A DNA stretch of 64,000 bases from an uncultured Pseudomonadales bacterium (GCA_964513845.1 CAZENT010000001.1:42450-106449); one strand, 5' to 3'; shown: positions 1 through 49,485, counted from the stretch's first letter. A program made the numbers and translations. The notes: generated by a model from the letters alone, not told the origin.

Positions 1-1886
1 GAAGCGTCGCCTTCTGATCTAATAACAATCTTGTCACCAGGCAAAAGCTTAGTTGTTTCTTTGGGTGACCCTTTCAATACACCCCTTGGAGGGATATTTA
101 CTCTCTTAGCAAGAGGAACCACAGTTCCATCACTTTTCTCAACAAAGACAGTCAATTTTGCCCAACCTCGCCTAAATTTTTCTCCTTTTTTGTATTCTAT
201 ACCATGTAAGTCCTCAGTATCACCAATTGAAACTTCAATTCTTTCAAAAGAAATTTCTTCATCAATATCAATACTAAGATCTCCTGTGGAATTACCACTC
301 TTAGACAGAGTAAAACCTTCACCATCGGTCGTTACGGGAAAATCTAACTTGGATACATCAGGGTGATTAAGAGGAATGCTCATATCATAAAAACCCATTC
401 TGGGATGAATTCCACCACCGTATGTAGGAGATAAAATATTATTAGCTAAGTCGACGAATTCAGTATTAGGAGTAAACTTCATTTCGAGTTTTGTAGATAG
501 TTCCTTTGGAAAAGTTTCAATCTCTAATCCTTTAAAAGAGACAACCCCCTTCTCCCCCTTTCCTGCACCCACGATTAGGACTCTCTTCGCTCTAATTTCT
601 CCATGACTCTCTACCCAATCATGTAAGATTTCTGCCTCTGGGTTACTAAATGGTCTATGCTCAGCAAACTTTGAACTACCAGAATCAACCCATCGATCTG
701 TTGTTTCATCAAAGACGAATATATTTGTGTAGGCTCCTTCTTCATCCCATCCTTCTGAATCAAGAGAATCTCGGTATTTTTCAGCTTTTCTATGGTGAAG
801 AGTAACTGCGTCAAGTATCCGCGCGCTAATATGATCAGGAAGTTCGATTAATACAGCATCTCCATTTTTTAGATCAATCTCGGAAGCTCCGCGATCTAAA
901 TCAAATTTTACCGAATTCATAGTGCCGTCAGAAGGCGCCTCGATAGTCCTTACTATTCTAGGACTTCCTATAGATTCCAATCTAAGATCACTTATTGATA
1001 AATCAGCACCCTCAATATGTCTAACCGGAGCTGATTCCCTATAAATTAAGGGTTTGATCTTTGTTCTTATAAGATCTAACAGACCAGGTCTCTTCATTTC
1101 ATCTCTTCTTTCAACCACAGCATCTGCCTCCACAACGTCTTCAACTAAGCCAAATCTTTTAGCTATGAAGTTCTTCCTTCCAATCAGCGAATCTTTTAGC
1201 TCCTGCCTTAAATCACTGTCAGTCAAGCCAGACGAGTCGACTATTTGAATAATCCTCTCATCGGTTAGTTTCTCTACAAGCATTTTAGCTTGAGATTTCA
1301 TTTCATCGTCTGAAACATTTTCAAAGACCATACCGGCAGGGTACATTGGATTACGCATACTATCCAGTTCAATAATGCTATCAGAAGGAAAATCTTTTTT
1401 TTCACCCCTAGCGCGGAATATTAATGATCCACCGTTATCAACTCTCCAGCAGTGGCCATCTGGAGATTTCATTATGTTATCAAAGGCGCTTCCACCAACA
1501 TCCCTATTACCCAAAAAAGCATCAACTACAAAACCAGACAATACTTCTTGCTCATTTGACATTTCCGAAGGGCTTAATGTTTTTAATCCTTTAATTTCTT
1601 TTGAGACAAAAGCTACTTTTCCATCGACTTCGGTAACAACAGTCTCCGGTACATGTAAACCAACTTCACGGTAAATTTCATTTGCAATTGCTTCAATTCT
1701 CGATCTGTCAGTGTTCGGATAAAATTTTACATAAAACCTTTCATCTGATTCATTCGTAAACCATCCACCATCATTAGAACCCTCCCTGCCAGAAACCTGA
1801 GTGAGTAGTCCTGGTTCCAAAACCTTAGGTTTTTGCTCATTCCGTGCTCCATTATCAGCTGAAGCATCATAATAAATATTTTCCAT
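1..1886 (-). CDS. Large hypothetical protein, N-terminal 628 codons (gene runs off the window start); possible atypical kinase-like domain
   Basis: Manual translation of the minus strand from ATG at 1886 (MENIYYDASADNGARNEQKPKV...) stays open to position 1. It is absent from the ORF track because no stop lies in the window. Motifs FLGNRDVGGSAFDNIM and VDNGGSLIF loosely resemble kinase catalytic/DFG-like loops. Plus-strand ORFs 31-366, 1054-1248 and 1375-1674 are antisense to it. Confidence 0.6.
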   Translation of the reverse strand, partial: MENIYYDASADNGARNEQKPKVLEPGLLTQVSGREGSNDGGWFTNESDERFYVKFYPNTDRSRIEAIANEIYREVGLHVPETVVTEVDGKVAFVSKEIKGLKTLSPSEMSNEQEVLSGFVVDAFLGNRDVGGSAFDNIMKSPDGHCWRVDNGGSLIFRARGEKKDFPSDSIIELDSMRNPMYPAGMVFENVSDDEMKSQAKMLVEKLTDERIIQIVDSSGLTDSDLRQELKDSLIGRKNFIAKRFGLVEDVVEADAVVERRDEMKRPGLLDLIRTKIKPLIYRESAPVRHIEGADLSISDLRLESIGSPRIVRTIEAPSDGTMNSVKFDLDRGASEIDLKNGDAVLIELPDHISARILDAVTLHHRKAEKYRDSLDSEGWDEEGAYTNIFVFDETTDRWVDSGSSKFAEHRPFSNPEAEILHDWVESHGEIRAKRVLIVGAGKGEKGVVSFKGLEIETFPKELSTKLEMKFTPNTEFVDLANNILSPTYGGGIHPRMGFYDMSIPLNHPDVSKLDFPVTTDGEGFTLSKSGNSTGDLSIDIDEEISFERIEVSIGDTEDLHGIEYKKGEKFRRGWAKLTVFVEKSDGTVVPLAKRVNIPPRGVLKGSPKETTKLLPGDKIVIRSEGDA

Positions 1887-2064
1887 AACAATACTTTTGA
1901 AAACTAAAGAAACTAATAATTTTAAGTATACCCCCGCAACAACTTAACCACCATAATTTGTTAACTCTTAAGTATGTCTTTCTCGTTGGTAATTCAAATA
2001 TTCTCATTGAACAAAATTAGATACATTCTTCTTGATAGGATACAAGCAAACCAGGGGAATTATT

Positions 2065-2370
2065 TTACTGTTTGGACTCCAATAAATTCTCTGCCAACGG
2101 TTCGATTATTTTTTCTAAGAGTTCTTGGTCTGAAAAAGTGGAAGCCAATGATTGGAGAATTGCGGTTCTTTGTTCTTCGTTGGTTTCTTCCCAAGGATTA
2201 AATTTTAGATGCTTTTCCAGTTCTGTAATTGAACTAACCGCCTTATGTTTTAGATCTACGTTTACGCATTTTACATCAGCGGCTCTCTCCTTTCCGATGT
2301 AGAGTAGGTCTTCTTTGTTAACCACGAGCACTTCATCTCCTAATTTTGCTACCGGGTATAGTTCGTTCAT
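2065..2370 (-). CDS. Small (~101 aa) conserved partner protein, paralog of 4969..5274; candidate immunity/antidote-like partner
   Basis: ORF-track 2065..2382 with likely true ATG at 2370 (MNELYPVAKLGDEVLVVNK...). It lies 1 nt after the stop of the upstream 373-aa gene and is ~65% identical to the 4969..5274 product. Confidence 0.6.
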   Translation of the reverse strand: MNELYPVAKLGDEVLVVNKEDLLYIGKERAADVKCVNVDLKHKAVSSITELEKHLKFNPWEETNEEQRTAILQSLASTFSDQELLEKIIEPLAENLLESKQ

Positions 2371-2371
2371 T

Positions 2372-3493
2372 TTAATATTCAATTAATTTAATTAACGATT
2401 CGGGATGCGCTTCTTTAAATTTATTATATATTTTTTTAACCTCTTCTATTTCATCGTCATCGAGGTCATTATTTTTAGATATGTAAATGGCCTCTATATC
2501 CTCGAATTTAAGTTGTCCATGAAATTGGGCTTCGGTGTATGAAGCACCCCATGTCACTTTGCTTGATTTTTCTAGACTGGCAAGTATATTTTCAACATAC
2601 CCACTAATACGAAAGCTTGTGAAGTGTGGCTTTGAGGCTGGGGTTGGTGGCCATTCATCTTTGGGGCTAAGACTGTCTTGGAAAGCGATCGTTGTTTTTT
2701 GTAATGCGCGCTCCCTCTTTATCTTAACTGTAATTTTTCCGTATGCGTCTACTGAGTTTGGTGGGGGGATTTCACCATCGTAATTTATAACCCCATATTC
2801 ATTATTTGAAAAATAGCCGTATATTGGTCTGTTTTCTTTGTTCTCATCAACAACCTCATCGGGAATACCTTCTCCGCGATGTCCTGAAGAATAATCAACA
2901 CCCTTACGCCCATTAAATGCAAACATCAGCACCTCAGCTTGAGCTCTGTAACTCTGATTTAAACAACCATCACTATGATTTGTTTCAAATTGACTTTTGA
3001 ATCGACCATCTTCGTTCAACACTTTGTCGAGTACGAATACGCTTGTCGCTCTGAAAAAATTAGATTCACCTACAATCGCCTCAATCTTTTTTTGCAATTC
3101 TACTTTAAACTCTTCTACTGTCATTCTGGCATCCATAGCCGCTTCCTCATATAATTCAAGATGTTCCTTTTCTGCATTGATAATGTTTCTCCGCATTCTG
3201 TCCTTTATCTCTGGATTTGCTTCTAGGTTTATAGCTTCCCAGTCTTGAAAATATTTTTCAGTTACAGCGGAAGGAAATTCAGTTTTTTCGTGAATTGTTT
3301 CTTCTGAAACCAGTGATGTTTCGGGATCAGAAACTCTTGAAATCGCGGCACCCCCGAATCTAGATCGGAGTTTGGCGAGAATATCAGAACTCACATCCTT
3401 TATGGTTTTCTTTTTTGTTTCAAATGTTGGTGACATTTCCATGTATGCTTCTGCCATGCACTTTATTATTGCGGTTATATATATAAGAGTCAA
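2372..3493 (-). CDS. Hypothetical protein (373 aa) with conserved ~290-aa C-terminal domain shared with 3612..4964
   Basis: Long ORF. Its C-terminal region aligns by eye with the 450-aa paralog on shared motifs NFFRAT, GRFKSQFET, RPIYGYFS, YG.ITVK.KR.RAL.K, PPTPA.KPHFTS, YTEAQFHG and IKLIEY. Confidence 0.7.
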   Translation of the reverse strand: MTLIYITAIIKCMAEAYMEMSPTFETKKKTIKDVSSDILAKLRSRFGGAAISRVSDPETSLVSEETIHEKTEFPSAVTEKYFQDWEAINLEANPEIKDRMRRNIINAEKEHLELYEEAAMDARMTVEEFKVELQKKIEAIVGESNFFRATSVFVLDKVLNEDGRFKSQFETNHSDGCLNQSYRAQAEVLMFAFNGRKGVDYSSGHRGEGIPDEVVDENKENRPIYGYFSNNEYGVINYDGEIPPPNSVDAYGKITVKIKRERALQKTTIAFQDSLSPKDEWPPTPASKPHFTSFRISGYVENILASLEKSSKVTWGASYTEAQFHGQLKFEDIEAIYISKNNDLDDDEIEEVKKIYNKFKEAHPESLIKLIEY

Positions 3494-3611
3494 TAATCTG
3501 CATGATGGTGGAGTAGAAGATGCAATTAAGTAATTGATGAGAAAAAGATAAGAAATCTATTATCACTGATGTAAATTCCTCAATATTTTTAAAATAAATT
3601 ATATTGCTATA

Positions 3612-4964
3612 ATGACTTTTGTGACAGAAATATCAACGGAAGAACCGCCATTGTTTGAACTAGAAAAGGGAATGCCTTTGAAAGATTTTTCTGAAATAAT
3701 TGATAAAATCAAGCCAAAATTGGGACTTGAGAGTTCAACCAAATCTTCCAAACCCATATACCCTGAAATAAGGTTTGACGAAGAAGGATCTATGATAGAA
3801 CCGCCGTTGCTTGAACCAGAAAAAAGAACACGATTGAAAAAATTTTCTGATATTATCGAAAAAATCAAGCCAAAATTGAGACTTGAGAGTTCGGCTTCAC
3901 CTTTCGAAGAATCCATATACCCTGAAATAAAGTTTGACGAAGAAGGATCTATGATAGAACCGCCATTGTTTGAACTAGAAAAAAGAATACTATTGAAAGG
4001 ATTTTCTGCAATTTTAGAAAAAATCAAATCAAAATTGAGACTTGAAAGTTCACCTAAATCTGAGACAACTAGAAAATATTTCGAAGATTGGGATGCTCTA
4101 CACTTAGATGCTAACCCGGAAATAAAGGAAACAATGAGAAAAAATATTCTTATTGCTGAAAAACAACACCAAAAAATCTACGAACAAGCTGCTCGTGAGG
4201 CAGGCGTTAGCATTGAAGTATTTAAGAAAAAATTACAAGAAAAAGTTGAAAGGGCGGTTGAGAACTCTAATTTCTTTAGAGCAACAAAAATTAGTGTATT
4301 AGATAAAGTTCTCAATGGAGATGGTCGATTCAAAAGTCAATTTGAAACACATGATAGTGGTGGCTTTTTGAATCCATCTTTTAGAGCATTGGCAGAAATG
4401 AAAATGTTTGGTTTCAATATGCCACCAGGCGGTTTCAAATTTTCCACTGCGGGTTATCATGGGAGCAAAATTCCAGATAGCATTGTGCACGATAACTGTG
4501 AAAGAAGACCAATTTATGGATATTTTTCCGATAATGAACATGGAGAAATCAATGAACGTGGAACAAACCCCCCATCAAATAATTTAGTTCAATATGGCGA
4601 GATAACTGTAAAATTAAAAAGGGATCGGGCTTTAGAAAAAGCAACATTGAGTTTTCAAGACAGCCTTGATTATAAAGACTGTCCTCCAACACCAGCGATA
4701 AAACCACATTTTACGAGCCTAGAAATTGGTGATGCTTATTCTGATGTAATACTAGATAGAGTTGAAAATCCAGGTACAACGAAATGGGGGTCAGTATACA
4801 CCGAAGCTCAGTTTCATGGGGGGCTAACATTAGACGATATTGATGTAATTTATGTTTCTACCGGTAACAGACTATATGACGACCAGATCATAGAGGTCCG
4901 CGAGATATATAATAGATTTATTCAATCGCATCCCGATTCAGATATTAAATTAATTGAATATTAA
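3612..4964 (+). CDS. Hypothetical protein (450 aa): three N-terminal ~53-aa tandem repeats plus the conserved C-terminal domain shared with 2372..3493
   Basis: ATG at 3612 follows a TATAAT-like box at 3604-3609. Repeats EPPLFELEK...IYPEI(R/K)FDEEGSMI occur three times. The C-terminal domain is homologous to the 373-aa paralog. Confidence 0.7.
   Translation: MTFVTEISTEEPPLFELEKGMPLKDFSEIIDKIKPKLGLESSTKSSKPIYPEIRFDEEGSMIEPPLLEPEKRTRLKKFSDIIEKIKPKLRLESSASPFEESIYPEIKFDEEGSMIEPPLFELEKRILLKGFSAILEKIKSKLRLESSPKSETTRKYFEDWDALHLDANPEIKETMRKNILIAEKQHQKIYEQAAREAGVSIEVFKKKLQEKVERAVENSNFFRATKISVLDKVLNGDGRFKSQFETHDSGGFLNPSFRALAEMKMFGFNMPPGGFKFSTAGYHGSKIPDSIVHDNCERRPIYGYFSDNEHGEINERGTNPPSNNLVQYGEITVKLKRDRALEKATLSFQDSLDYKDCPPTPAIKPHFTSLEIGDAYSDVILDRVENPGTTKWGSVYTEAQFHGGLTLDDIDVIYVSTGNRLYDDQIIEVREIYNRFIQSHPDSDIKLIEY
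3642..4064 (+). repeat. Three tandem ~159-nt (53-codon) coding repeats within the 3612..4964 gene
   Basis: Near-identical DNA units begin gaaccgcc(a/g)ttg(t/c)ttgaac at 3642, 3801 and 3960. The third unit is truncated. The antisense ORF 3599..4027 is an artefact of this repeat. Confidence 0.85.
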
Positions 4965-6323: not shown

Positions 6324-6854
6324 TTAAAAGATGTCTTCGGGAGGGAGGAATTCTTCACCATTGGCAGCTTGAGGTTTGAACTCGGTTTTGAGCCAGAGAA
6401 CATAGTCGCAACCAGTGGCTTTCTTTTCTTCTCTATCCCAGCCAGAAGTCGAACATTTTTTCATTTTTTTACCGGCCGCGGTGGTGTAGAGAACTAGAGG
6501 TTCGCCACATTTGGGACATTTTTCGTCAAGCTTTTCGGTGGTTCCGTTGATCCATTCAACGTAGTCGCAACCTGTGGCCTTTTTGGCTTCTTTATCCCAA
6601 CCACCGGCACTACATTTCTTCATTTTTTTACCAAAACGTGTCACCTGAAGAACTAAAGGTTCGCCACATTTGGGACATTTTTCATCAAGAGTTTGTGGCT
6701 CAACCTCTAACCATTTGACATAGTCACAGCCATCGGTTTTGTGAGTTTCGGTGTTCCAGACACCCGTTGAACAGCGTCTAAGCTTTCGGCCGGTTGGGGT
6801 TTCGGTAATTTCTGATAGTGGTGCGCCACATTTGGGACATTTTTCTTCTTCCAT
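6324..6854 (-). CDS. Stand-alone protein of three tandem C4 zinc-ribbon repeats resembling topoisomerase-I C-terminal zinc ribbons
   Basis: Three ~57-aa repeats, each CPKCG(A/E)PL...GKKMKKCS..GW.....GCDYV.W. Confidence 0.65.
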   Translation of the reverse strand: MEEEKCPKCGAPLSEITETPTGRKLRRCSTGVWNTETHKTDGCDYVKWLEVEPQTLDEKCPKCGEPLVLQVTRFGKKMKKCSAGGWDKEAKKATGCDYVEWINGTTEKLDEKCPKCGEPLVLYTTAAGKKMKKCSTSGWDREEKKATGCDYVLWLKTEFKPQAANGEEFLPPEDIF

Positions 6855-6896
6855 GCTTATTAGATTAACACATCTTGGACAAGAAGACGAGATGAA

Positions 6897-13094: not shown

Positions 13095-14558
13095 GTGTAT
13101 AGAAGGTTTTTATTACCAGACGAGGTTGCATTGCTCCCTAGTGAGCTGAAGCAAGTGATGAGCCTGTATATTGCTCGCGGTTTTGAGATCTATTTGGTGG
13201 GAGGAGGTGTACGAAATATCCTGATGGAGAAAGTCCCGGAGAACTGTGATTTAACGACAAATGCAACACCGGAAGAAAGTTTAGAAATTTTGAAAGAGCT
13301 TGATCCTTTTTATAACAATGATTTTGGAACTGTTTCTTATGAAATTGAAATAGATGGGAAGAAAGAACTATACGAAATCACAACCTATCGTTCGGAAAAA
13401 GAATACTCAGATTATCGCCGTCCCGACAATGTAAGCTGGGGAAAAACTTTGGAAGAAGATGTTACGCGTAGAGACTTCACCGTGGGCGCAATGGTAATCG
13501 GCCAAAAAGATGGAAAATATGAAATTATTGATCTGGTTGGCGGACTAGAAGACTTTGAAAAGGGTTTGATTAGAGCTGTCGGTAACCCCGAAAAACGTTT
13601 TGGAGAAGATGCTCTGAGAATGATGAGAGCCATAAGAATTGCAGCCAAACTTGGTTTTTCGATCGAAGAAGAAACTTTGAAAGCAATTTCAGTCAAGGCA
13701 CCATTGCTTGCCAATATCAGTAAAGAAAGAGTGCGCGATGAGCTAATGAAAATTATTGGGTCTGATTATCCAGCAGACGGAGTATCTCTATTGATATCGA
13801 CTGGTTTGATGGAACAAATAATTCCAGAAGTTTTGGAAGGCAGAGGTGTAATGCAGGGAGGACACCACACTCTGACTGTATTAGATCACATGTTGGAGTG
13901 TTTACGAAATAGTTCTTCACCCGATCCTGTTGTGCGTTTTGCCACTTTTATTCATGATGTGGGTAAACCAAGAAGTCAGAGATATAAGTGCCGAAAATGC
14001 GGAAAAATGTTCAGAGATCTGGCTGAAGAAATGACCACATGCGCCGATTGCGGATTTAATCAGCCGACCAGAGGAATGATTACTTTTTACGGACATGAAG
14101 TTATTGGAGCAAGACTAGCTAAAGAAATATGCGAAAGACTTCGGTTTACAAATAAACAGACTGAAAAAGTTGTGACCCTGGTGCGAATGCACATGTTTGC
14201 TTATCAGCCAGAAATGACAGATGCTGCTATTAGAAGAATCATAAGAAAAGTAGGCAAGGAAAATATCGCCGATATGGTTCTCTTGCGAATTGCCGATCGA
14301 AAAGGAAGCGGAAGTAACACGACAAGTTGGAGATTTATGGAGCTGCAAAAAAGAATTGGCGAACAATTGTTTGAACCAATGGAAATTAATGACATGGCAG
14401 TTGATGGACGAGATGTGATGGAGGTTTTAAATATTCAACCCGGACCTATCGTAGGAAAGGTTTTGAAAGAGTTGTTTGACGAAGTACTGGAGGATACGAG
14501 CAAAAATAACAAAGAATATCTACTTTCACGAATTAAAGAGGTTGAAAAATCCATATAG
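13095..14558 (+). CDS. cca: CCA-adding tRNA nucleotidyltransferase with HD domain and an inserted zinc ribbon
   Basis: GGGVRN...DCDLTTNATPEE is a polymerase-beta head motif. HDVGKP...FYGHE is the HD domain, interrupted by CRKCGKMFRDLAEEMTTCADCG. The true start may be an internal ATG near 13161. Confidence 0.8.
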   Translation: MYRRFLLPDEVALLPSELKQVMSLYIARGFEIYLVGGGVRNILMEKVPENCDLTTNATPEESLEILKELDPFYNNDFGTVSYEIEIDGKKELYEITTYRSEKEYSDYRRPDNVSWGKTLEEDVTRRDFTVGAMVIGQKDGKYEIIDLVGGLEDFEKGLIRAVGNPEKRFGEDALRMMRAIRIAAKLGFSIEEETLKAISVKAPLLANISKERVRDELMKIIGSDYPADGVSLLISTGLMEQIIPEVLEGRGVMQGGHHTLTVLDHMLECLRNSSSPDPVVRFATFIHDVGKPRSQRYKCRKCGKMFRDLAEEMTTCADCGFNQPTRGMITFYGHEVIGARLAKEICERLRFTNKQTEKVVTLVRMHMFAYQPEMTDAAIRRIIRKVGKENIADMVLLRIADRKGSGSNTTSWRFMELQKRIGEQLFEPMEINDMAVDGRDVMEVLNIQPGPIVGKVLKELFDEVLEDTSKNNKEYLLSRIKEVEKSI

Positions 14559-14583
14559 ATTCCGGGTCAGGCCCGGAATGACA
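14554..14583 (+). repeat. Short palindromic repeat element, family A, copy 1 (TATAGATTCCGGGTCAGGCCCGGAATGACA)
   Basis: The same ~30-bp hairpin element recurs at 22371, 22950, 49456 and 57045. Its TAG supplies the stop codon of cca. Confidence 0.8.
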
Positions 14584-14651
14584 AATGGGATAACAATTAC
14601 CTGCGAGGAGACTCCTTGCAGGGGGAATGCTTGGGATGGTTAAAGAATAGT

Positions 14652-15507: not shown

Positions 15508-16899
15508 TTATTTCGTGTTTATTTTTTTGATAGATTGCCGCGTCGGAGTACCTCCTCGCAATGACGCGGACGCGAGTGTTTTGCCTTTGTAAAAAAGACG
15601 AAGAAGGTTTCGAGTGACAACTAACCCGGTAAATAAAGAGATTAAAATACCGAGAATTAGAGTTAAGGCAAAACCGCGAACTGCCCCTGAAGTGTTGAGA
15701 AAGTTCCAATCAAGGGGATTGAAAAGAATAAAACCAGTAATAATGGTGGCTGTGTTGGCGTCTTTGATACTGTCCCAGGCTCTGCCAAAAGCTAGTTCGA
15801 GAGCCACTCGCCAATCCCTGCCCGCCCTTATTTCTTCTTTGTAGCGCTCAAAAACTAAAATGTTGGAGTCAACCGCCATGCCAACAGAAAGTAGGAAACC
15901 GGCAATTCCTGGCAGACTGAGAACGACAGGAATTAGCTTGTAAAGAACTAGGGTAAATAATCCATAAAGAACTAAGCCAACAGAAGCGATTACCCCCATC
16001 CATCCGTAGTTACCAATCATGAAAAGAATAACCATGGAGAGCCCAATGGCACCGGCGGTAACGCTTTTTTGAATTGAGTCGGCGCCTAGTGTAGCTGGTA
16101 TATTTTTCTGACTTAAAACACTTACCGGAACGGGAAGCGCACCGGCGTTTAGCTGAACCGCAAGAGCTTTGGCTTCGTCTGTAGTGAAACTGCCCGTGAT
16201 TTGGGCATTTCCATCAAGAATTTCGACTTGAACTGTGGGCATAGTGACTGGATAGTTGTCCAACAAAATGGCGATGGGTTTGCCGATATTCTCTTTGGTG
16301 AGTTTGGCGAACTTGGTTTTTCCGGCATCTTTGAAAGAGATTGAAACTGCGGGCTGACGATCTTCGGTTTCAAAAGTAACCTGGGCTCTAGCTAGATCAG
16401 CACCGGTGAGATCTGTGGGAGAAAAACCCGACAAGGTGGCTGCGTCCGTGGCAGTTTTGCCTTCGGTGTAAATAGGAAGAGCGAACTCCATTTTGGCTGT
16501 TTGACCAATAAGGTCAAGTGCTTGCTGGGGATCGGTGACTCCAGGAAGTTCAAGAATCAAGCGATAGTCGTTGCCAGAGACTGCTGTTTTGATTCCTGAT
16601 TCTGACACACCAAACAGATCAATACGTCTGGAAATAACTGTTTTAACCGATTCTAAGGCTGTTGCACGGTCTTCGGCCTTGATCTCTTGCATGTCGGCAG
16701 TAAGGGTAACTTGAAGGCCGCCCTTGATGTCGAGACCTTGCTTGAGCTCTATTTCTTTTGAGAGATCGAGATTGCCAATCTTGAAATTGATTCTGGGAAC
16801 TTGAAAATTAAATATCTTTGTTGGGAGTACAAGATATAGCGACATCAGAGTGATAATCGCGATAAAAATAAAAACTTTCTGTGGTTTTTTGAGAGTCAT
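15508..16899 (-). CDS. secD: Protein translocase subunit SecD (C-terminus extended by an in-frame repeat element)
   Basis: SecD periplasmic domain and TM segments are present. The last ~20 codons (ASASLRGGTPTRQSIKKINTK) are encoded by family B element copy 1. Confidence 0.85.
   Translation of the reverse strand: MTLKKPQKVFIFIAIITLMSLYLVLPTKIFNFQVPRINFKIGNLDLSKEIELKQGLDIKGGLQVTLTADMQEIKAEDRATALESVKTVISRRIDLFGVSESGIKTAVSGNDYRLILELPGVTDPQQALDLIGQTAKMEFALPIYTEGKTATDAATLSGFSPTDLTGADLARAQVTFETEDRQPAVSISFKDAGKTKFAKLTKENIGKPIAILLDNYPVTMPTVQVEILDGNAQITGSFTTDEAKALAVQLNAGALPVPVSVLSQKNIPATLGADSIQKSVTAGAIGLSMVILFMIGNYGWMGVIASVGLVLYGLFTLVLYKLIPVVLSLPGIAGFLLSVGMAVDSNILVFERYKEEIRAGRDWRVALELAFGRAWDSIKDANTATIITGFILFNPLDWNFLNTSGAVRGFALTLILGILISLFTGLVVTRNLLRLFYKGKTLASASLRGGTPTRQSIKKINTK
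15529..15576 (+). repeat. Short palindromic repeat element, family B, copy 1 (GATAGATTGCCGCGTCGGAGTACCTCCTCGCAATGACGCGGACGCGAG)
   Basis: It shares its AGATTGCC...CCTCGCAATGAC core with copies at 30552 and 42026. Confidence 0.75.
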
Positions 16900-19902: not shown

Positions 19903-20598
19903 CTACTTCTTCTTGCTGAGATTTTTGTACCAACCTTCAAGAAGAGTTTTTACCAAGTCTTTTGATCCAAGTCCAAGACTAATTCCAATACCGAGTGCCA
20001 GGGCAGCTATAAAGCCTGTAAAGGTGGTTTCAATAAAGAATCGAGCAATGCCAAGCTGAGAGAGGGCGACCAGAATGAAGAGGGTTAGCGTGGCGTAACT
20101 GACAACCTTTCCAACCAAGCGAGAGAAGGCCGGATCACCTGAGCCTAGAGAACCTTTAACCATTTTTTCTAAGAAGCCGGCGATAAAAACACCAACTATT
20201 AGAATAATTATGGCGGCGACAAGGGTGGGAATACCTAAGATGATACTGTTGAGGAACTCGCTGACAGAAGTTAAACCCAGAACGTTGATACTAGCAATAA
20301 AGAACAAAATGATAATGATCCAGTGAATAATTTCGCCAATCACGACCTCAATTTTCTGAGTCATTTGAGCGTTTTTTAGAAACTCGTTAAAGGCAGTGTT
20401 TTTGATGATGCCACCAAGCTTGGTTAAGTTGACGAGTTTGATGGTGAGAGTTTTAAGCCAGCCAGCAAGAATGAGGCCAAATAAAAACAAGACAATAGCA
20501 CCCAATAGACTGGGAATAAAACTAACGATGCCAACGAGCATTTGATTAAAAGCAAAAGTGAGAGAGTTTTCGAAGGAATAAAAAACATTTGTGTTCAT
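19903..20598 (-). CDS. Polytopic membrane protein with repeated conserved TM-helix modules
   Basis: Four or more hydrophobic helices, resembling the N-terminal TM_helix repeats of small mechanosensitive-channel-like proteins. Confidence 0.45.
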   Translation of the reverse strand: MNTNVFYSFENSLTFAFNQMLVGIVSFIPSLLGAIVLFLFGLILAGWLKTLTIKLVNLTKLGGIIKNTAFNEFLKNAQMTQKIEVVIGEIIHWIIIILFFIASINVLGLTSVSEFLNSIILGIPTLVAAIIILIVGVFIAGFLEKMVKGSLGSGDPAFSRLVGKVVSYATLTLFILVALSQLGIARFFIETTFTGFIAALALGIGISLGLGSKDLVKTLLEGWYKNLSKKK

Positions 20599-20675: not shown

Positions 20676-20990
20676 ACACTCCCGGGTGCTGGTGAGGAAC
20701 GCCCTGCCGCAAGGCAGGGAGGAAAGTCCGGACAGCTAAAAGATAGGGTGACCAGGGAAACCTGGTTCTTCTCGAGGTGACTCGAGAGGCGCGATAGGGC
20801 CACAGAGACGAATAAAGGTGAAACGCTCTTGGTTACAAGAGATGGTTTAGAAGTAACTCTAAACTAGTGGTAACCCGCCCTGCTGCAATCGACGAATTGG
20901 GATTAAGGTATCTTTTCCGTCCCAGAAGTCTCGAGCATTAGATAGATGTTCCTCCTAGACAGAATCCGGCTTACTATGACCCGGGGGTCC
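20676..20990 (+). ncRNA. rnpB: RNase P RNA (bacterial type A, reduced length)
   Basis: Universally conserved P4 strands GGGAGGAAAGTCCGGAC (20717-20733) and ACAGAATCCGGCTTAC (20959-20974). P1 pairs cccgggt (20681-20687) with acccggg (20979-20985). An AGGTGAAACG...GGTTACAAGAG region resembles the J11/12-P12 region. Confidence 0.8.
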
Positions 20991-21995: not shown

Positions 21996-22991
21996 TTATT
22001 GGTATATTTTTTTCAATTGACTGATGAGGTTTGCTCTATCGGTACTTTTATCATACCAAACTATACCTGATTGTTTTTTAAACCAGACAGTTTGTCTTCG
22101 GGCGTAATCGACTTCAGAACGAGTCCAGGTTTCCACCAGCTCCTCATTGGAAACTTGACCTTCCAAGAAAGCAATTATTTGGGACACCCCCAGGCTAGTG
22201 TAAATGGGAAGGTTTCTGTTGGGATATTTGGTTAATAAATTTTTTACTTCGTCGATGGCACCATCGGCGATTCTATCCAAAACTCTTTTGTGGATTTGAT
22301 TTTTTATACTCTCTTTGTTGGGCATTATGCCAATCCAGTGAAATTGAGATTCTATTAGTGGGTTAATTTGAATAGATTCCCGATCAGGTCGGGAATGACA
22401 AGATTTTGTTATCGATGATGAGTTATTTAATGAGATTTCAATGGCGCGAATTAGCCGGCGAGGATTCATAAAATCCGAGTGATTAAGTGCTGCGAGTTTT
22501 TCTGGATTTTCTTTTTGAAGATAATCTTGAAGCTCTTTGGTGGTGAGCTTCTCTAGTTCTTTTCGCAATTCTTCGTTTGGTGGTACTAAAACATCCGAAA
22601 GATTTTGAGTAATGGCTTTTAAATACAAGCCTGTTCCCCCGACAATTATCAAGGGTGTTTTTGTGGCAATCGAGTCGTTGATTACTTTTTGAGAGTAACG
22701 ACAAAAATCTGCAAGATTTGCTCTTTCATCTGATCGAAAAATATCATGCCCAAATATTTTTATATTTTCGGGAAGGTTGAGCGGAATATCTTTCCCGGTG
22801 ATGATATCCAAATCTTGGTAAACTTGCCGTGAGTCAACCGATAAAATATTTGCTTTGGGCAGCTCTTTAGCTAAGTGAAGAGCAAGGCTAGTTTTGCCCG
22901 ATGCGGTTGGACCACAGATGACGACGATGTGATGATTGGAGTTAATTTGTATAGATTCCGGGTCAAGCCCGGAATGACATAGATATTTCAT
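21996..22991 (-). CDS. miaA: tRNA dimethylallyltransferase carrying two in-frame repeat-element insertions
   Basis: P-loop ICGPTASGKTSLAL and LSVDSRQVYQDLDIITGK match MiaA. Two ~13-aa insertions (CHSGLDPESIQIN at the N-terminus, CHSRPDRESIQIN mid-protein) coincide exactly with family A elements at 22950 and 22371. Confidence 0.8.
   Translation of the reverse strand: MKYLCHSGLDPESIQINSNHHIVVICGPTASGKTSLALHLAKELPKANILSVDSRQVYQDLDIITGKDIPLNLPENIKIFGHDIFRSDERANLADFCRYSQKVINDSIATKTPLIIVGGTGLYLKAITQNLSDVLVPPNEELRKELEKLTTKELQDYLQKENPEKLAALNHSDFMNPRRLIRAIEISLNNSSSITKSCHSRPDRESIQINPLIESQFHWIGIMPNKESIKNQIHKRVLDRIADGAIDEVKNLLTKYPNRNLPIYTSLGVSQIIAFLEGQVSNEELVETWTRSEVDYARRQTVWFKKQSGIVWYDKSTDRANLISQLKKIYQ
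22371..22400 (+). repeat. Short palindromic repeat element, family A, copy 2 (inside miaA, in frame)
   Basis: AATAGATTCCCGATCAGGTCGGGAATGACA. Confidence 0.8.
22950..22979 (+). repeat. Short palindromic repeat element, family A, copy 3 (inside the miaA 5' end, in frame)
   Basis: TATAGATTCCGGGTCAAGCCCGGAATGACA. Confidence 0.8.
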
Positions 22992-29579: not shown

Positions 29580-30908
29580 GTGGATAAATTACGAAAGTAT
29601 GTTTTTTTTGTTTTGTTTTTTTTGGCAGTAGTAATTTTTTTGATTCATTATTCGGTTTCCGGACAAGCTGTCTATGGGGATGGCATTGGCTATTATTCTC
29701 ACCTGCATAGCTGGGTGATTGACGGCGACTGGAACTATACCAATGAGTACAAACATATTTATGATTGGGAACATAATAATTTCGATACCGGAGTTGAGTC
29801 ATCTGCAATACAAATAGTTTCGACAACCAAAGAGGGGGAAGCGGAAAACTTTTATGGTACTGGAGTGGCGGTGTTACTTTTGCCTTTTTATTTGATGGCT
29901 CATTTTATTTCTATCTTGGCCAATCTTTTTGGGGCGGGAATTTCCGTACAGGGATATGGAGACGCGTATCAAATACTGACAGGAATTGGGGCTGTTTTTT
30001 ACGCAGTCTGGGGAGTGTATTTTCTGAATAAAATGATTGATATTGTTATCCGAGATAACAAAATTAGCTTAATAAGTAGTGTGACGATTTTCTTGTCAAC
30101 CAGCTTGCTTTATTATGGTAGTTTTGACGTAATTAATTCTCACTTTGCTTCTTTCTTTTTGACCGTGGTTTTCTTTTATTTATTTTTTTCGAGAAAAAAC
30201 AATCTGCTTTTGGGGTTGGTGGCCGGACTTATCACATTAAATAGAGTTCAAGACTCTGTAGTGATATTGATTTGGCTTATCGATTTTTTACGAAATAAAA
30301 GGCCATTAATTACTGCAAAAAACTTCTTGATCGGATATGTTTTTGCTTTAATTCCGCTTTTCTTTCATTGGGGTAGTGTGATTGGAAATCCACTCAATCA
30401 TCCATATTTGCGAGGGCTTACTGAGAAAATTCAAGGTGGACAAAGCACTGACATTTTTGGAAGTCTGTTTAATCCAGTTACCGGATTGTTTTTTCGGACT
30501 CCCCTACTTTTGGTTTTGTTCTTGTATTTTTTGTGTTTAATTGTTAATTATTATAGATTGCCACGTCACTTCGCTCCTCGCAATGACAAGATTTATTTTG
30601 TATATCCATTTATATTCTTTTTAATGCAGTTTGTGATTATTACTCTTCAAGGCGGATGGGCGGCAGCTGCTTATGGAGGAAGAATGTATATTTCTTCTTT
30701 GGTGTTTTTTGGATTAGTGTTGGGAAAAATGCTCACCTGGATGAGTAAAAAAAATCATAGATTGGTCTATGTTTTTGTGATGACATTTATAGTAATAAAC
30801 TTTGTTTCTATGGCGATATTTATTTTGAGAGATAAGGGGGCAGAGGGTGGATCTCATGGCACTGAACAGAGAACAATCCAAAGACTTAATAAAATATTCC
30901 GAAAATAA
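29580..30908 (+). CDS. Polytopic membrane protein, GT-C (ArnT/PMT-like) glycosyltransferase-like, with an in-frame family B repeat insertion
   Basis: About 12 TM helices. The first periplasmic loop contains YGDGIGYY, DE/DG-x-YY-like. The peptide YRLPRHFAPRNDK is encoded by the element at 30552. Confidence 0.45.
   Translation: MDKLRKYVFFVLFFLAVVIFLIHYSVSGQAVYGDGIGYYSHLHSWVIDGDWNYTNEYKHIYDWEHNNFDTGVESSAIQIVSTTKEGEAENFYGTGVAVLLLPFYLMAHFISILANLFGAGISVQGYGDAYQILTGIGAVFYAVWGVYFLNKMIDIVIRDNKISLISSVTIFLSTSLLYYGSFDVINSHFASFFLTVVFFYLFFSRKNNLLLGLVAGLITLNRVQDSVVILIWLIDFLRNKRPLITAKNFLIGYVFALIPLFFHWGSVIGNPLNHPYLRGLTEKIQGGQSTDIFGSLFNPVTGLFFRTPLLLVLFLYFLCLIVNYYRLPRHFAPRNDKIYFVYPFIFFLMQFVIITLQGGWAAAAYGGRMYISSLVFFGLVLGKMLTWMSKKNHRLVYVFVMTFIVINFVSMAIFILRDKGAEGGSHGTEQRTIQRLNKIFRK
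30552..30588 (+). repeat. Short palindromic repeat element, family B, copy 2 (in frame within 29580..30908)
   Basis: TATAGATTGCCACGTCACTTCGCTCCTCGCAATGACA. Confidence 0.75.
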
Positions 30909-41432: not shown

Positions 41433-41999
41433 CTATTTTACGCCTGAATTGAGCCGAGTGCAGATTTCTTGAAAAATGGTGTCGATGTCGGGACGGCCAT
41501 CAATTTCAAGAAGCTTGCCCTGAGAACGGTAATGTTCTATAATCGGAATCGTTTTTTGGGTGTATGTATCGAGCCTTTCTTTGATTGCTTCGGGTGTGTC
41601 GTCGGTGCGACCTTCGAGAACTGCACGTTTAGCCAGCCTCTCTAAACTAACTTCTCGAGGAATATCCAAGAGAATTACTTTATCTATGTTCGTTTTTAAT
41701 TCCTTAAGAAAGTAGTCAAGATACTCTGCTTGACTGATTTCCCTGGGGGTGCCGTCTATTATGAAACCGGTTCGGGAATTTCTAAGGGCTGGCTCAAGTA
41801 CATCGAGAACTGTCTCGAAAGGCATAAGTTCACCCGATTGGAGAATTTTAGCGATGATTTTGCCCTTGGGAGATCCACTCTCAGCTTCCGCACGAAGCAA
41901 AGCCCCGCTAGATATATGAGTGAGATTATATTTTTCTGCCAATAATTTGGCTTGAGTACCTTTTCCAGATCCTTGGGGACCTAAAATAATTAAATTCAT
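41433..41999 (-). CDS. adk: Adenylate kinase
   Basis: P-loop ILGPQGSGKGTQA and LID region. Confidence 0.9.
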   Translation of the reverse strand: MNLIILGPQGSGKGTQAKLLAEKYNLTHISSGALLRAEAESGSPKGKIIAKILQSGELMPFETVLDVLEPALRNSRTGFIIDGTPREISQAEYLDYFLKELKTNIDKVILLDIPREVSLERLAKRAVLEGRTDDTPEAIKERLDTYTQKTIPIIEHYRSQGKLLEIDGRPDIDTIFQEICTRLNSGVK

Positions 42000-42025: not shown

Positions 42026-42059
42026 GAGATTGCCGCGTCACTTCGTTCCTCGCAATGAC
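42026..42059 (+). repeat. Short palindromic repeat element, family B, copy 3 (adk-secY intergenic)
   Basis: GAGATTGCCGCGTCACTTCGTTCCTCGCAATGAC. Confidence 0.75.
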
Positions 42060-42064
42060 GATAT

Positions 42065-43351
42065 TTAATCCAAGAACTTGTCGTAACTATACATGTAGAG
42101 CTGAGAGTTGATGGTTTTGAGAATTTCCAGAACTACGGAAACGACGATCAACACACTGGTTCCACCGATGGCTAGAGAAGCAATGCCGGTGAAGCCGGAC
42201 ATAATCGAGGGAAGAATGGCAACTAGCCCTAAGAAACTGGCACCAACGAGGGTAATACGACCCAAGACAAAGTTTAGATAGTTGACCGTATCGGGACCCG
42301 GCCTAATACCGGGGATAAACGATCCAGATGAGCGAAGATCTTTAGCAATTTTTTCGGGATTAAAAACGACGGCGGTGTAAAAGTAAGAGAAAGCCACAAC
42401 CAAAACAAAGTAGAGGACATTATAAAGAACTGAGCTGGGAGCGAGCCAAGTACTTAACGTGGTGGCAAAACCGGCAAGAGTAGGCTGATTAACGCCAGCC
42501 AGAACTCGACTCAGCATACTAGGAATGAGCATAAAAGAAACAGCAAAGATGATTGGGATGACACCGGCCTGATTTAAACGAAGAGGTAGATGACTGCTGG
42601 CAACCGCACTGTAGGAGGCTCCCCCGCCACGTCTGGCTGACTGGATGGGAATTTCGCGAATAGCCTCACCAACTCTGACAATGGCATAAATGGCGGCGAC
42701 GACAAAAAATAAGAAGATTAAGTAGGTAAATATCTTGGATTGATCCATGGTGGTAATGGTTTGGATGATGTTGATAGGAATACGAGTGACGATACCAACA
42801 AAAATGATAAGACTAATGCCGTTGCCTAAACCATAATCGTTTAGCTGCTCACCAAGCCAGATAAGAAGTGAGGTACCGGCGGCGAGAGTAAAGACGATGG
42901 AAGCTAGCTGTAAGGGATCGGCCGTGGTAGTGAGGCCTTGTTTTTGAAGAAGGAAAATAAGGGCAATGCCTTGTAGGAAACAAAGAGGAATGGTAAGAAG
43001 GCGGGTGTATTGATTGATCTTTTGGCGACCATAATCCCCTTCTTTTTGGAGAGCTTCGAGCTTGGGAATAACCATACCGAGCATTTGGAAAATAATGGAG
43101 GCGTTGATGTAGGGGTTTAAACCAAGAGCCATAATGGAAAAGTTTCCCAAGGTACCGCCGGAAAAAACATCGAGAAGAGAAAGAAAGGCTGAGGAATTGA
43201 ACATTTCCTTAAGAGCGGAAAGGTTGATACCCGGAGCCGGGACATGAGCAACTAGACGGAAAATGGCAATAACAACAGCAGTAAAAATCAAACGCTTGCG
43301 AAGTTCTTTGATTTTCAACAAGGCGCGCAGAGGGGCTAATAAATTATTCAT
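42065..43351 (-). CDS. secY: Preprotein translocase subunit SecY
   Basis: 428 aa, 10 TM helices, with conserved SecY motifs (GGTSVLI, RPG...YL). Confidence 0.9.
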   Translation of the reverse strand: MNNLLAPLRALLKIKELRKRLIFTAVVIAIFRLVAHVPAPGINLSALKEMFNSSAFLSLLDVFSGGTLGNFSIMALGLNPYINASIIFQMLGMVIPKLEALQKEGDYGRQKINQYTRLLTIPLCFLQGIALIFLLQKQGLTTTADPLQLASIVFTLAAGTSLLIWLGEQLNDYGLGNGISLIIFVGIVTRIPINIIQTITTMDQSKIFTYLIFLFFVVAAIYAIVRVGEAIREIPIQSARRGGGASYSAVASSHLPLRLNQAGVIPIIFAVSFMLIPSMLSRVLAGVNQPTLAGFATTLSTWLAPSSVLYNVLYFVLVVAFSYFYTAVVFNPEKIAKDLRSSGSFIPGIRPGPDTVNYLNFVLGRITLVGASFLGLVAILPSIMSGFTGIASLAIGGTSVLIVVSVVLEILKTINSQLYMYSYDKFLD

Positions 43352-49442: not shown

Positions 49443-49455
49443 ATGTTTTTATTTG

Positions 49456-49485
49456 TATAGGTTCCCGATCAGGTCGGGAATGACA
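49456..49485 (+). repeat. Short palindromic repeat element, family A, copy 4 (rpsC-rplP intergenic)
   Basis: TATAGGTTCCCGATCAGGTCGGGAATGACA. Confidence 0.8.

Follow-up and report, generated by a model that had tools for sequence, protein, structure and literature searches.

In a 64-kb stretch of bacterial DNA (CAZENT010000001.1:42450-106449, referred to here as the window), the miaA gene, which encodes tRNA dimethylallyltransferase, holds two copies of a short palindromic repeat that we call family A. Comparison with orthologs indicates that the copy in the middle of the gene is a genuine in-frame insertion of a repetitive extragenic palindrome (REP), and that the copy at the start of the open reading frame (ORF) is a REP of the miaB-miaA junction that would have been taken into the ORF after a shift of the start codon. 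We put the probability of this whole reading, in which both copies are non-autonomous CGTC-type hairpin repeats, at roughly 0.8. The host of the window is evidently an uncultured Microgenomates bacterium of the Candidate Phyla Radiation (CPR); the top-ranking homologs of its MiaA belong to CPR bacteria of the Microgenomates group (source names Woesebacteria, Collierbacteria and Microgenomates).

A first-pass annotation, made without knowledge of the host, had placed two family A copies in the miaA ORF and described both as in-frame insertions. The copies lie at the positions and on the strand that it gave, in the same frame and with the same peptides. Its description as insertions stands for the mid-gene copy, on the evidence of the ortholog alignment; the N-terminal copy is not a simple insertion but a junction REP, the translation of which we infer from its context.

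Family A and the MiaA linker

Family A is a 38-nt repeat that opens with a TGTC tag, forms an 8-bp stem around a CTTGA or CCTGA loop, and closes with a tail (CTATWCAAATTAA). The 8-bp stem arms, ATTCCNNN and NNNGGAAT, have AT in the first positions. The window copies have the tail CTA, extended to CTATWCAAATWAA, and the copies of a related contig, L128, have CCA. We searched the window with the pattern TGTCATTCC-N5-TGA-N3-GGAATCTAT, allowing up to 3 mismatches, and obtained 4 matches, all on the minus strand (Table 1), against 0.00 expected from 100 shuffles; element counts for the host genome refer to these 64 kb. Both miaA copies fold into an 8-bp stem with a 5-nt loop, with DNA dG values of -7.6 and -8.5 kcal/mol and z-scores of -3.5 and -4.9 that no shuffle equalled. 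Pairing is kept where the two stems differ (GGG/CCC versus CGA/TCG), the changes being compensatory. Each element is a single hairpin, and no direct repeat flanks all four family A copies; a miniature inverted-repeat transposable element would be recognised by IS-derived terminal inverted repeats and a target-site duplication. A mimic of the tRNA anticodon arm or T-arm was also considered and was ruled out by inspection, as the 5-nt loop and the sequence do not fit.

To place the two copies in the protein, the window MiaA was aligned with its best 120 hits, giving a set of 121 proteins. Orthologs are mostly 301-312 aa long, which agrees with the first-pass estimate that the 331-aa ORF exceeds an expected length of ~305 aa. 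The window protein is longer in this alignment at both of the predicted indels. The linker running from RAIEI to FHWIG has 16-18 aa in 60/121 proteins and 30 aa in the window MiaA, and the segment before ICGPT has 9-10 aa in 78/121 proteins and 24 aa in the window MiaA. An AlphaFold (AF2) model of the ORF product resembles the solved MiaA structures 3exa, 2zm5 and 3foz. Its mean pLDDT (predicted local distance difference test score) is 78, with values below 50 only at residues 1-17 and 194-212, and these two stretches are the element-encoded segments. When aligned to the solved structures, residues 194-212 fall between the last helix of what we take to be the insertion domain (named after the E. 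coli MiaA-tRNA structures) and the next core strand, so that the mid-gene copy occupies a linker loop.

The mid-gene copy, covered by the peptide SCHSRPDRESIQINPLIESQ, is absent from the nearest ortholog, P0001 (91% aa identity), and from the 60 proteins with the baseline linker. Because the frame is intact, the ortholog comparison points to an insertion and the model confidence is low, this copy is evidently translated within a disordered loop. P0001 is carried by contig L001, which aligns with the window over 4.1 kb at ~98% identity. Structural differences in this 4.1-kb alignment are found only at the two element sites, at both of which L001 has family B, a related element, where the window has family A. 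The same loop of P0001 reads CHCEERSDVAIS and is encoded by the family B repeat TGTCATTGCGAGGAGCGAAGCGATGTGGCAATCT. Outside the elements, too, the linker of the window is unlike that of L001, despite near-identical flanks. Elsewhere in the alignment, which is otherwise ~98-99% identical, a dense cluster of substitutions lies at window positions 20170-20240, within the gene for a mechanosensitive (MS) channel; this cluster may be a short recombination tract.

The first-pass annotation had itself raised the possibility that the segments are native, conserved MiaA sequence, and a repeat-caused assembly artefact would be another way to account for them. Such repeats do break contigs, L001 ending inside one, and an exact-protein look-up of the window MiaA retrieved no independent assembly. 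However, most orthologs lack both segments, and the frame and the flanking conserved motifs are intact. Independent metagenomes carry the same family in the same loop, in P0017 and in P0018, the latter on at least 17 contigs, and a further family A copy in the window, between rpsC and rplP, is identical in three other, independent assemblies (L125-L127). We regard native sequence or artefact as very improbable explanations of the two segments.

The orthologs clearly mark the MiaA linker as a well-defined insertion hot spot for REPs. Around 35 of the 121 proteins (~30%) have longer linkers with recognisable repeat-derived peptides, which belong to several families and frames. Family A is read there as SHSRPDRESI (P0017) and SHSGLDPESI (P0018) and, in its second sense frame, as VIPGLTRNP (P0068, P0062). 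Other linkers hold HSRESGNLYR (P0004, P0013, P0015), VIPAKAGIH (P0069, P0078) or SLRGAKRRGNL (P0070, P0074). Nested forms are apparent in P0017 and when P0009 is compared with P0012 or P0015 with P0013. At the other extreme is L130, one of 4 loci obtained in a metagenome scan for MiaA relatives, in which the linker and junction sites are both empty. A third REP site of MiaA, after the first helix and before NILSVDSRQ, was seen in P0105 (L052 2097-3020), with B and A in tandem (SSSLRAKRGNPASCHSRPDRESI), and in P0068.

The miaB-miaA junction and the start of MiaA

The other miaA copy is, by comparison across relatives, a REP of the miaB-miaA junction, a site that REPs fill in several of them. 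In L130 the junction is an empty 5-nt spacer. In L001 and L129 it holds family B, then AGTAAAATATAT, then ATG. L128 has a B-A tandem that is wholly extragenic, an in-frame TAA preceding the ATG. L002 has an ATG, next a family A copy in which a 42-nt hairpin is nested, and then the canonical ATG (MNTNQH...), and the window has an ATG, then family A and then ATT in the position of the canonical ATG. The junction copy falls within the window ORF solely through the ATT in place of the canonical ATG and the in-frame ATG further upstream. The spacer AGTAAAATATAT is conserved after the B element (L001 1-40, L128 9907-10000, L129 47-111), and its end lies 0-5 nt ahead of the miaA ATG in L001 and L129; in L128 the spacer separates B from A. 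It looks like a -10 box positioned for a miaA transcript with a very short leader or none.

These arrangements suggest that translation of the window MiaA probably starts at ATG 22991, in which case the hairpin would give a 15-residue N-terminal extension and the expected N-terminal peptide is MKYLCHSGLDPESIQ. No ATG, GTG or TTG is in frame between the junction element and the P-loop. The alternative is that translation starts from the ATT at 22944-22946, so that the N-terminal copy would lie outside the protein and the hairpin would be an ordinary intergenic REP of the spacer. ATT is a very rare start codon in bacteria, and a canonical in-frame ATG lies 45 nt upstream of it, 2 nt past the miaB stop and with no intervening stop. 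ATGAAWWAT, homologous to the region of this upstream ATG, also follows the miaB stop in L002, which keeps the upstream ATG and an open frame through its 42-nt (14-codon), frame-preserving nested insertion. On the other side, the ATT stands exactly where relatives have their ATG and would yield the canonical 9-residue N-terminus, the orthologous junction copy of L128 is extragenic, and the internal canonical Met is kept in the extended orthologs P0004, P0054, P0057, P0060 and P0081. Di Nocera et al. (2013) likewise warn that many N-terminal REPs are probably extragenic (PMC3733652). Taking these points together we hold the ATT start to be rather unlikely, and the upstream ATG the probable one.

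Distribution, reading frames and turnover of the repeats

A single scan of representative genomes with the pattern GTCATTCC-N5-TGA-N3-GGAATCTAT (20 fixed bases) yielded at least 120 loci. We analysed 126 copies from these loci, and the counts and percentages that follow apply to the matches listed. The pattern fixed the tag, outer stem, TGA and tail, so that conservation of those parts is by construction, and it demanded CTAT in the tail, so that it carries no information on the tail consensus. Hosts include cultured Flavobacteriaceae (Flagellimonas, Hanstruepera, Winogradskyella), Ignavibacteria, Alpha- and Gammaproteobacteria, a Rickettsia, Elusimicrobia, Melainabacteria, Spirochaetes, Clostridia, Dehalococcoidia and ~25 CPR contigs. 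Family A is not specific to the Microgenomates lineage, and its motif is present in many phyla. The inner 3 bp of the stem are fully Watson-Crick in 109/126 copies, compared with ~1.6% by chance, and 30 different types of inner stem occur among the 126. At its free bases the loop is CTTGA in 106 copies and CCTGA in 18, and GTC is preceded by T in 92 copies and by C in another 30. By a hand count of few cases, stem mismatches, an asymmetry in which would bear on an RNA-level role, comprise ~9 G·T against ~4 A·C.

About 88% of the copies lie outside long ORFs. Intergenic copies are placed between convergent genes in 19 cases versus 7 between divergent genes, and of the copies flanked by co-directional genes 31 are sense and 30 antisense. 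Copies inside long ORFs, 14 in a first count and 16 in a second, use all three stop-free frames: CHS..D.ES, VIP.L.RN and the antisense NRFR.K.GMT, examples of which in other genes or MiaA orthologs are CHSGLDPES, VIPGLTRN and antisense NRFRVKPGMT. As read from the sequence, the remaining three frames are closed by TGA in the loop, TGA in the tag or TAG in the tail. The intragenic share of ~6/28 in CPR versus ~10/98 in other hosts, classified by titles and with the window excluded, is only suggestive.

The strand and frame shared by the two miaA copies had been taken in the first-pass annotation as a sign of constraint or of a preferred insertion orientation. This does not hold: because all three open frames occur elsewhere, the shared frame has no special meaning, and by chance alone the frame would agree in about a third of pairs of tolerated copies. 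All 9 repeat elements in the window share one orientation, as do nearly all of its genes. As a separate observation, nearly all window genes lie on the minus strand despite a GC skew that is positive on the plus strand in every 4-kb bin from 4001 on (the 1-4000 bin is negative), and the coding strand is therefore C-rich.

These data allow us to propose how the repeats came to lie in miaA. Small non-autonomous CGTC-type hairpin repeats lie for the most part just outside genes, and an intragenic copy would survive only where ~13 extra residues are tolerated and a stop-free frame is in register, which would act as a selection filter. The intragenic copies are found in segments that are variable or disordered. 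The mid-gene copy lies in the flexible linker leading back to the core sheet from the insertion domain. At the junction, the canonical ATG has given way to ATT and the upstream ATG would open the frame, most likely giving the N-terminal extension. Spread would most likely occur by trans-mobilisation, or by copying of the single-stranded hairpin, through an enzyme that is encoded by the host or widely shared. Which elements fill the sites varies even between very close strains. Loss may be frequent, through slippage at the termini (GTCATT... and ...AATCT) that adjacent A and B copies have in common, given that A+B tandems are seen in L128 and L129 but A alone in the window and B alone in L001.

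Some observations weigh against this model. Family A is 28/29 identical at orthologous sites, while the miaA genes are ~65% identical in nucleotide sequence, and this identity fits recent re-insertion, homogenisation or selection equally well. No pair of empty and filled sites with alignable flanks, from which insertion boundaries, target preference and any target duplication could be read, was found, and no transposase domain was found among the 13 window ORFs scanned. With respect to the junction copy, most orthologs with N-terminal extensions keep the canonical internal Met/ATG, and because of this long predicted MiaA N-termini are often over-calls.

The hairpins could instead be selected cis-acting RNA or DNA structures, with a role in transcript stabilisation, processing or coupling, that are kept at fixed sites, namely the miaB-miaA junction, the miaA linker and the secF 3' end, and are not selfish repeats. 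Such a role would account for family A at orthologous sites in the window, L002, L128 and L129, for its near-identity there, for the strong stem covariation and for the preference of copies for 3' ends and convergent gene pairs. It is at odds with the closest relative, L001, which lacks A at both sites, and with L130, where both are empty. The even balance of sense and antisense copies between co-directional genes, the presence of copies in unrelated genes in both orientations, and the failure of any Rfam family to match at any element in the window also argue against it. We consider a cis-acting role unlikely, and favour mobile, non-autonomous repeats. One architecture (tag, ATTCC, free 3-bp stem, CTTGA, GGAAT, tail) recurs among the matches listed across well over a dozen phyla. 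It is conceivable, though we would not expect it, that CGTC-type hairpins are long-lived and kept at specific CPR sites, coding loops included, and that a widely distributed factor recognises, copies or homogenises them. If so, new disordered linkers and termini would regularly arise in essential proteins of the streamlined Microgenomates as the hairpins turn over.

Beyond miaA, the window holds two extragenic family A copies and several elements of family B (Table 1). The copy between secF and the CCA-adding-enzyme gene overlaps the last 4 nt, stop included, of the plus-strand ORF of the latter (13095..14558). Directly after the secF stop and immediately upstream of this copy is a strong hairpin, CCTGCAAGGAG-TCT-CCTCGCAGG, at 14595-14625 (minus strand), which could be a terminator or another repeat family. 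At the rpsC-rplP site, an L16 look-up returned identical strains only, with no empty site among them. Family B does not form a simple hairpin fold (z -0.5) and is grouped with family A solely on the shared termini (C/T)GTCATTGC...GGCAATC. The SecD tail with its B-type element is absent from the syntenic SecD of L128. The LPRHFAPRND segment of the 442-aa protein is an 11-aa insertion relative to 28/30 orthologs, and sits in a short inter-helix loop of this multi-pass membrane protein, distant relatives of which carry PF13231. The reading frame of a 611-aa membrane protein in a Collierbacteria metagenome-assembled genome (L056 1648-3483) takes in two REP pairs arranged head to head, VPAQAGTY+LNRFRIKSGMT and VIPAKAGIY+LNRFRVKHGMT.

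Other features of the window were observed in passing. An RNase P RNA of bacterial class A (Rfam RF00010, 105 bits) occupies 20681-20989 (plus strand), in a ~400-nt gap between the AI-2E transporter and MS-channel genes and on the strand opposite to most genes. Tandem repeats of ~156-162 nt, three copies each, are found at 3595-4051, in a 450-aa ORF (3612..4964, plus strand) with no Pfam match, and at 6388-6856, in a 176-aa ORF (6324..6854, minus strand) built of zinc-ribbon units.

Table 1. Repeat elements and miaA features of the window, in window coordinates.
Feature	Position	Strand	Context
miaA ORF (tRNA dimethylallyltransferase)	21996..22991	-	331 aa if the start is ATG 22989-22991; Pfam IPPT, E=2.7e-47
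Family A, mid-gene copy	22363-22400 (hairpin 22376-22397; pattern match 22372-22400)	-	in frame; encodes C198-N210, CHSRPDRESIQIN
Family A, miaB-miaA junction copy	22942-22979 (hairpin 22955-22976; pattern match 22951-22979)	-	residues 5-17, CHSGLDPESIQIN, if the start is 22991
Upstream in-frame ATG	22989..22991	-	2 nt past the miaB stop (TAA 22994-22996); probable present start
ATT replacing the ancestral miaA ATG	22944..22946	-	INSNHHIVV aligns with MKNDHHIVV of L001; L002 has ATG
Family A, extragenic copy	14546..14583 (pattern match 14555-14583)	-	between the convergent secF and CCA-adding-enzyme genes
Family A, extragenic copy	49448..49485 (pattern match 49457-49485)	-	fills the 46-nt rpsC-rplP spacer
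Family B', related element (CGTCATTGC...GGCAATCT)	15532..15566	-	in frame, SecD C-terminal tail (ORF 15508..16899); reads ASLRGGTPTRQSI
Family B element	30555..30588	-	within plus-strand membrane ORF 29580..30908 (442 aa); antisense in frame, LPRHFAPRND
Family B element	42027..42060	-	intergenic, between ORFs 41433..41999 and 42065..43351

Comparison with known systems

The closest known system is that of the CGTC-tagged REPs (Di Nocera, De Gregorio & Rocco 2013, BMC Genomics 14:522; PMC3733652). These are stem-loops of 20-40 bp with an unpaired CGTC tag (often TGTC or CCTC), an 8-9 bp stem starting with A and T, a 4-5 nt loop and the tail consensus CCA. They occur in many copies per genome, mostly extragenic and between co-directional or convergent ORFs, were reported in five phyla, and no dedicated transposase was found for them (PMC3733652). 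CGTC-1 was equated with Neisseria dRS3 and with RPE-6 of the Rickettsia palindromic elements (RPEs), and CGTC-4 with RPE-4. Several of the published intragenic copies are in tRNA/rRNA-modification and repair genes, and the in-frame peptides of Additional file 3 include CHSRESGNP, VIPAKAGI, SFPRKRES, DSRLRGND, RHPGLDPGS and VIPGLDPGIH, among others (PMC3733652).

Family A shows the repeated stem-loop, tag, stem and loop by which CGTC REPs are recognised. It shares with them the unpaired tag, the 8-bp, AT-first stem and the 5-nt loop. Its short tail, too, appears unpaired, and among the copies matched in other genomes most are extragenic, near 3' ends and between co-directional or convergent neighbours, with a minority in frame within genes. 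Published peptides (CHSRESGNP, VIPAKAGI, RHPGLDPGS, VIPGLDPGIH) match those in MiaA orthologs. By its sequence, family A fits the CGTC superfamily as an 8-bp-stem/5-nt-loop type, with CGTC-2, CGTC-3 and CGTC-4 as the candidate numbered families. The window, with 4 family A and at least 3 family B copies, differs from the published cases in that its tail is CTA instead of CCA, its copies are singletons instead of head-to-head dimers, and CPR/Microgenomates is outside the five phyla of 2013 (PMC3733652).

The likeness to RPEs, which had been pointed out in the first-pass annotation, is well founded as a family relation, through the CGTC superfamily with its RPE-4 and RPE-6, and the phenomenon was already documented (PMC3733652). 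According to a 2024 review of prokaryotic miniature inverted-repeat transposable elements (PMC10969869), the Rickettsia palindromic elements of Ogata et al. 2000 are palindromic repeats that lie, as here, in frame in housekeeping genes at positions tolerated by the fold, with two copies per gene possible, and RPE-1, at ~100-150 bp, is longer than the 38 nt of family A. The mid-gene copy is an insertion in the same sense, and the N-terminal copy is one only if ATG 22991 is used. Unlike an RPE, this copy would be a junction REP taken into the ORF after a start-codon shift, and the host is a free-living or episymbiotic CPR bacterium, not Rickettsia. Family A lies outside the Rickettsia RPE sequence families, to which the CGTC superfamily (RPE-4, RPE-6) is its sole link. 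The remark that such insertions were not known to be described for this lineage agrees with the literature searched, in which CPR/Patescibacteria are mentioned neither in PMC3733652, nor in PMC10969869, nor in the results of full-text searches. Searches by peptide string gave nothing relevant.

The outer stem of family A is the same as that of Neisseria dRS3 (ATTCCC-N8-GGGAAT), the mid-gene copy being ATTCCC-N9-GGGAAT. In Neisseria, dRS3 repeats border intergenic mosaic elements and act as integration sites for phages, whereas the window shows no such context. GTAG REPs and REPINs, which are mobilised by RAYTs (REP-associated tyrosine transposases), are also short tagged hairpins with an unpaired tetranucleotide, mostly extragenic and with an occupancy that varies by strain. 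The tag here is (C/T)GTC, however, TGTC in family A, and no flanking Y1 transposase was seen among the 13 window ORFs scanned. The small dispersed repeats of Nostoc, reportedly described by Elhai and colleagues in 2008, are said to be hairpins of less than 40 nt that nest in one another and are tolerated in genes. Nested copies are likewise found in P0004, P0009, P0015 and P0017, but the sequence family and the hosts are different.

CPR genomes are usually considered streamlined and repeat-poor. The occurrence of tiny hairpin repeats written into proteins is now extended to the Candidate Phyla Radiation, and the MiaA allele series (empty, A, B and both, including a ~98% identical pair) can be used to study repeat gain and loss. 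For annotation, the REP-derived CHSGLDPES, VIPAKAGI, SLRGAKRRGNL and HCEERSDVAI are examples of peptides that lengthen the N-termini and loops of predicted CPR proteins, and for assembly, CGTC-type repeats break metagenomic contigs. Set beside the systems above, the kind of element and its in-frame copies were already known; what is new is the host lineage, CPR, and the hot spot in MiaA.

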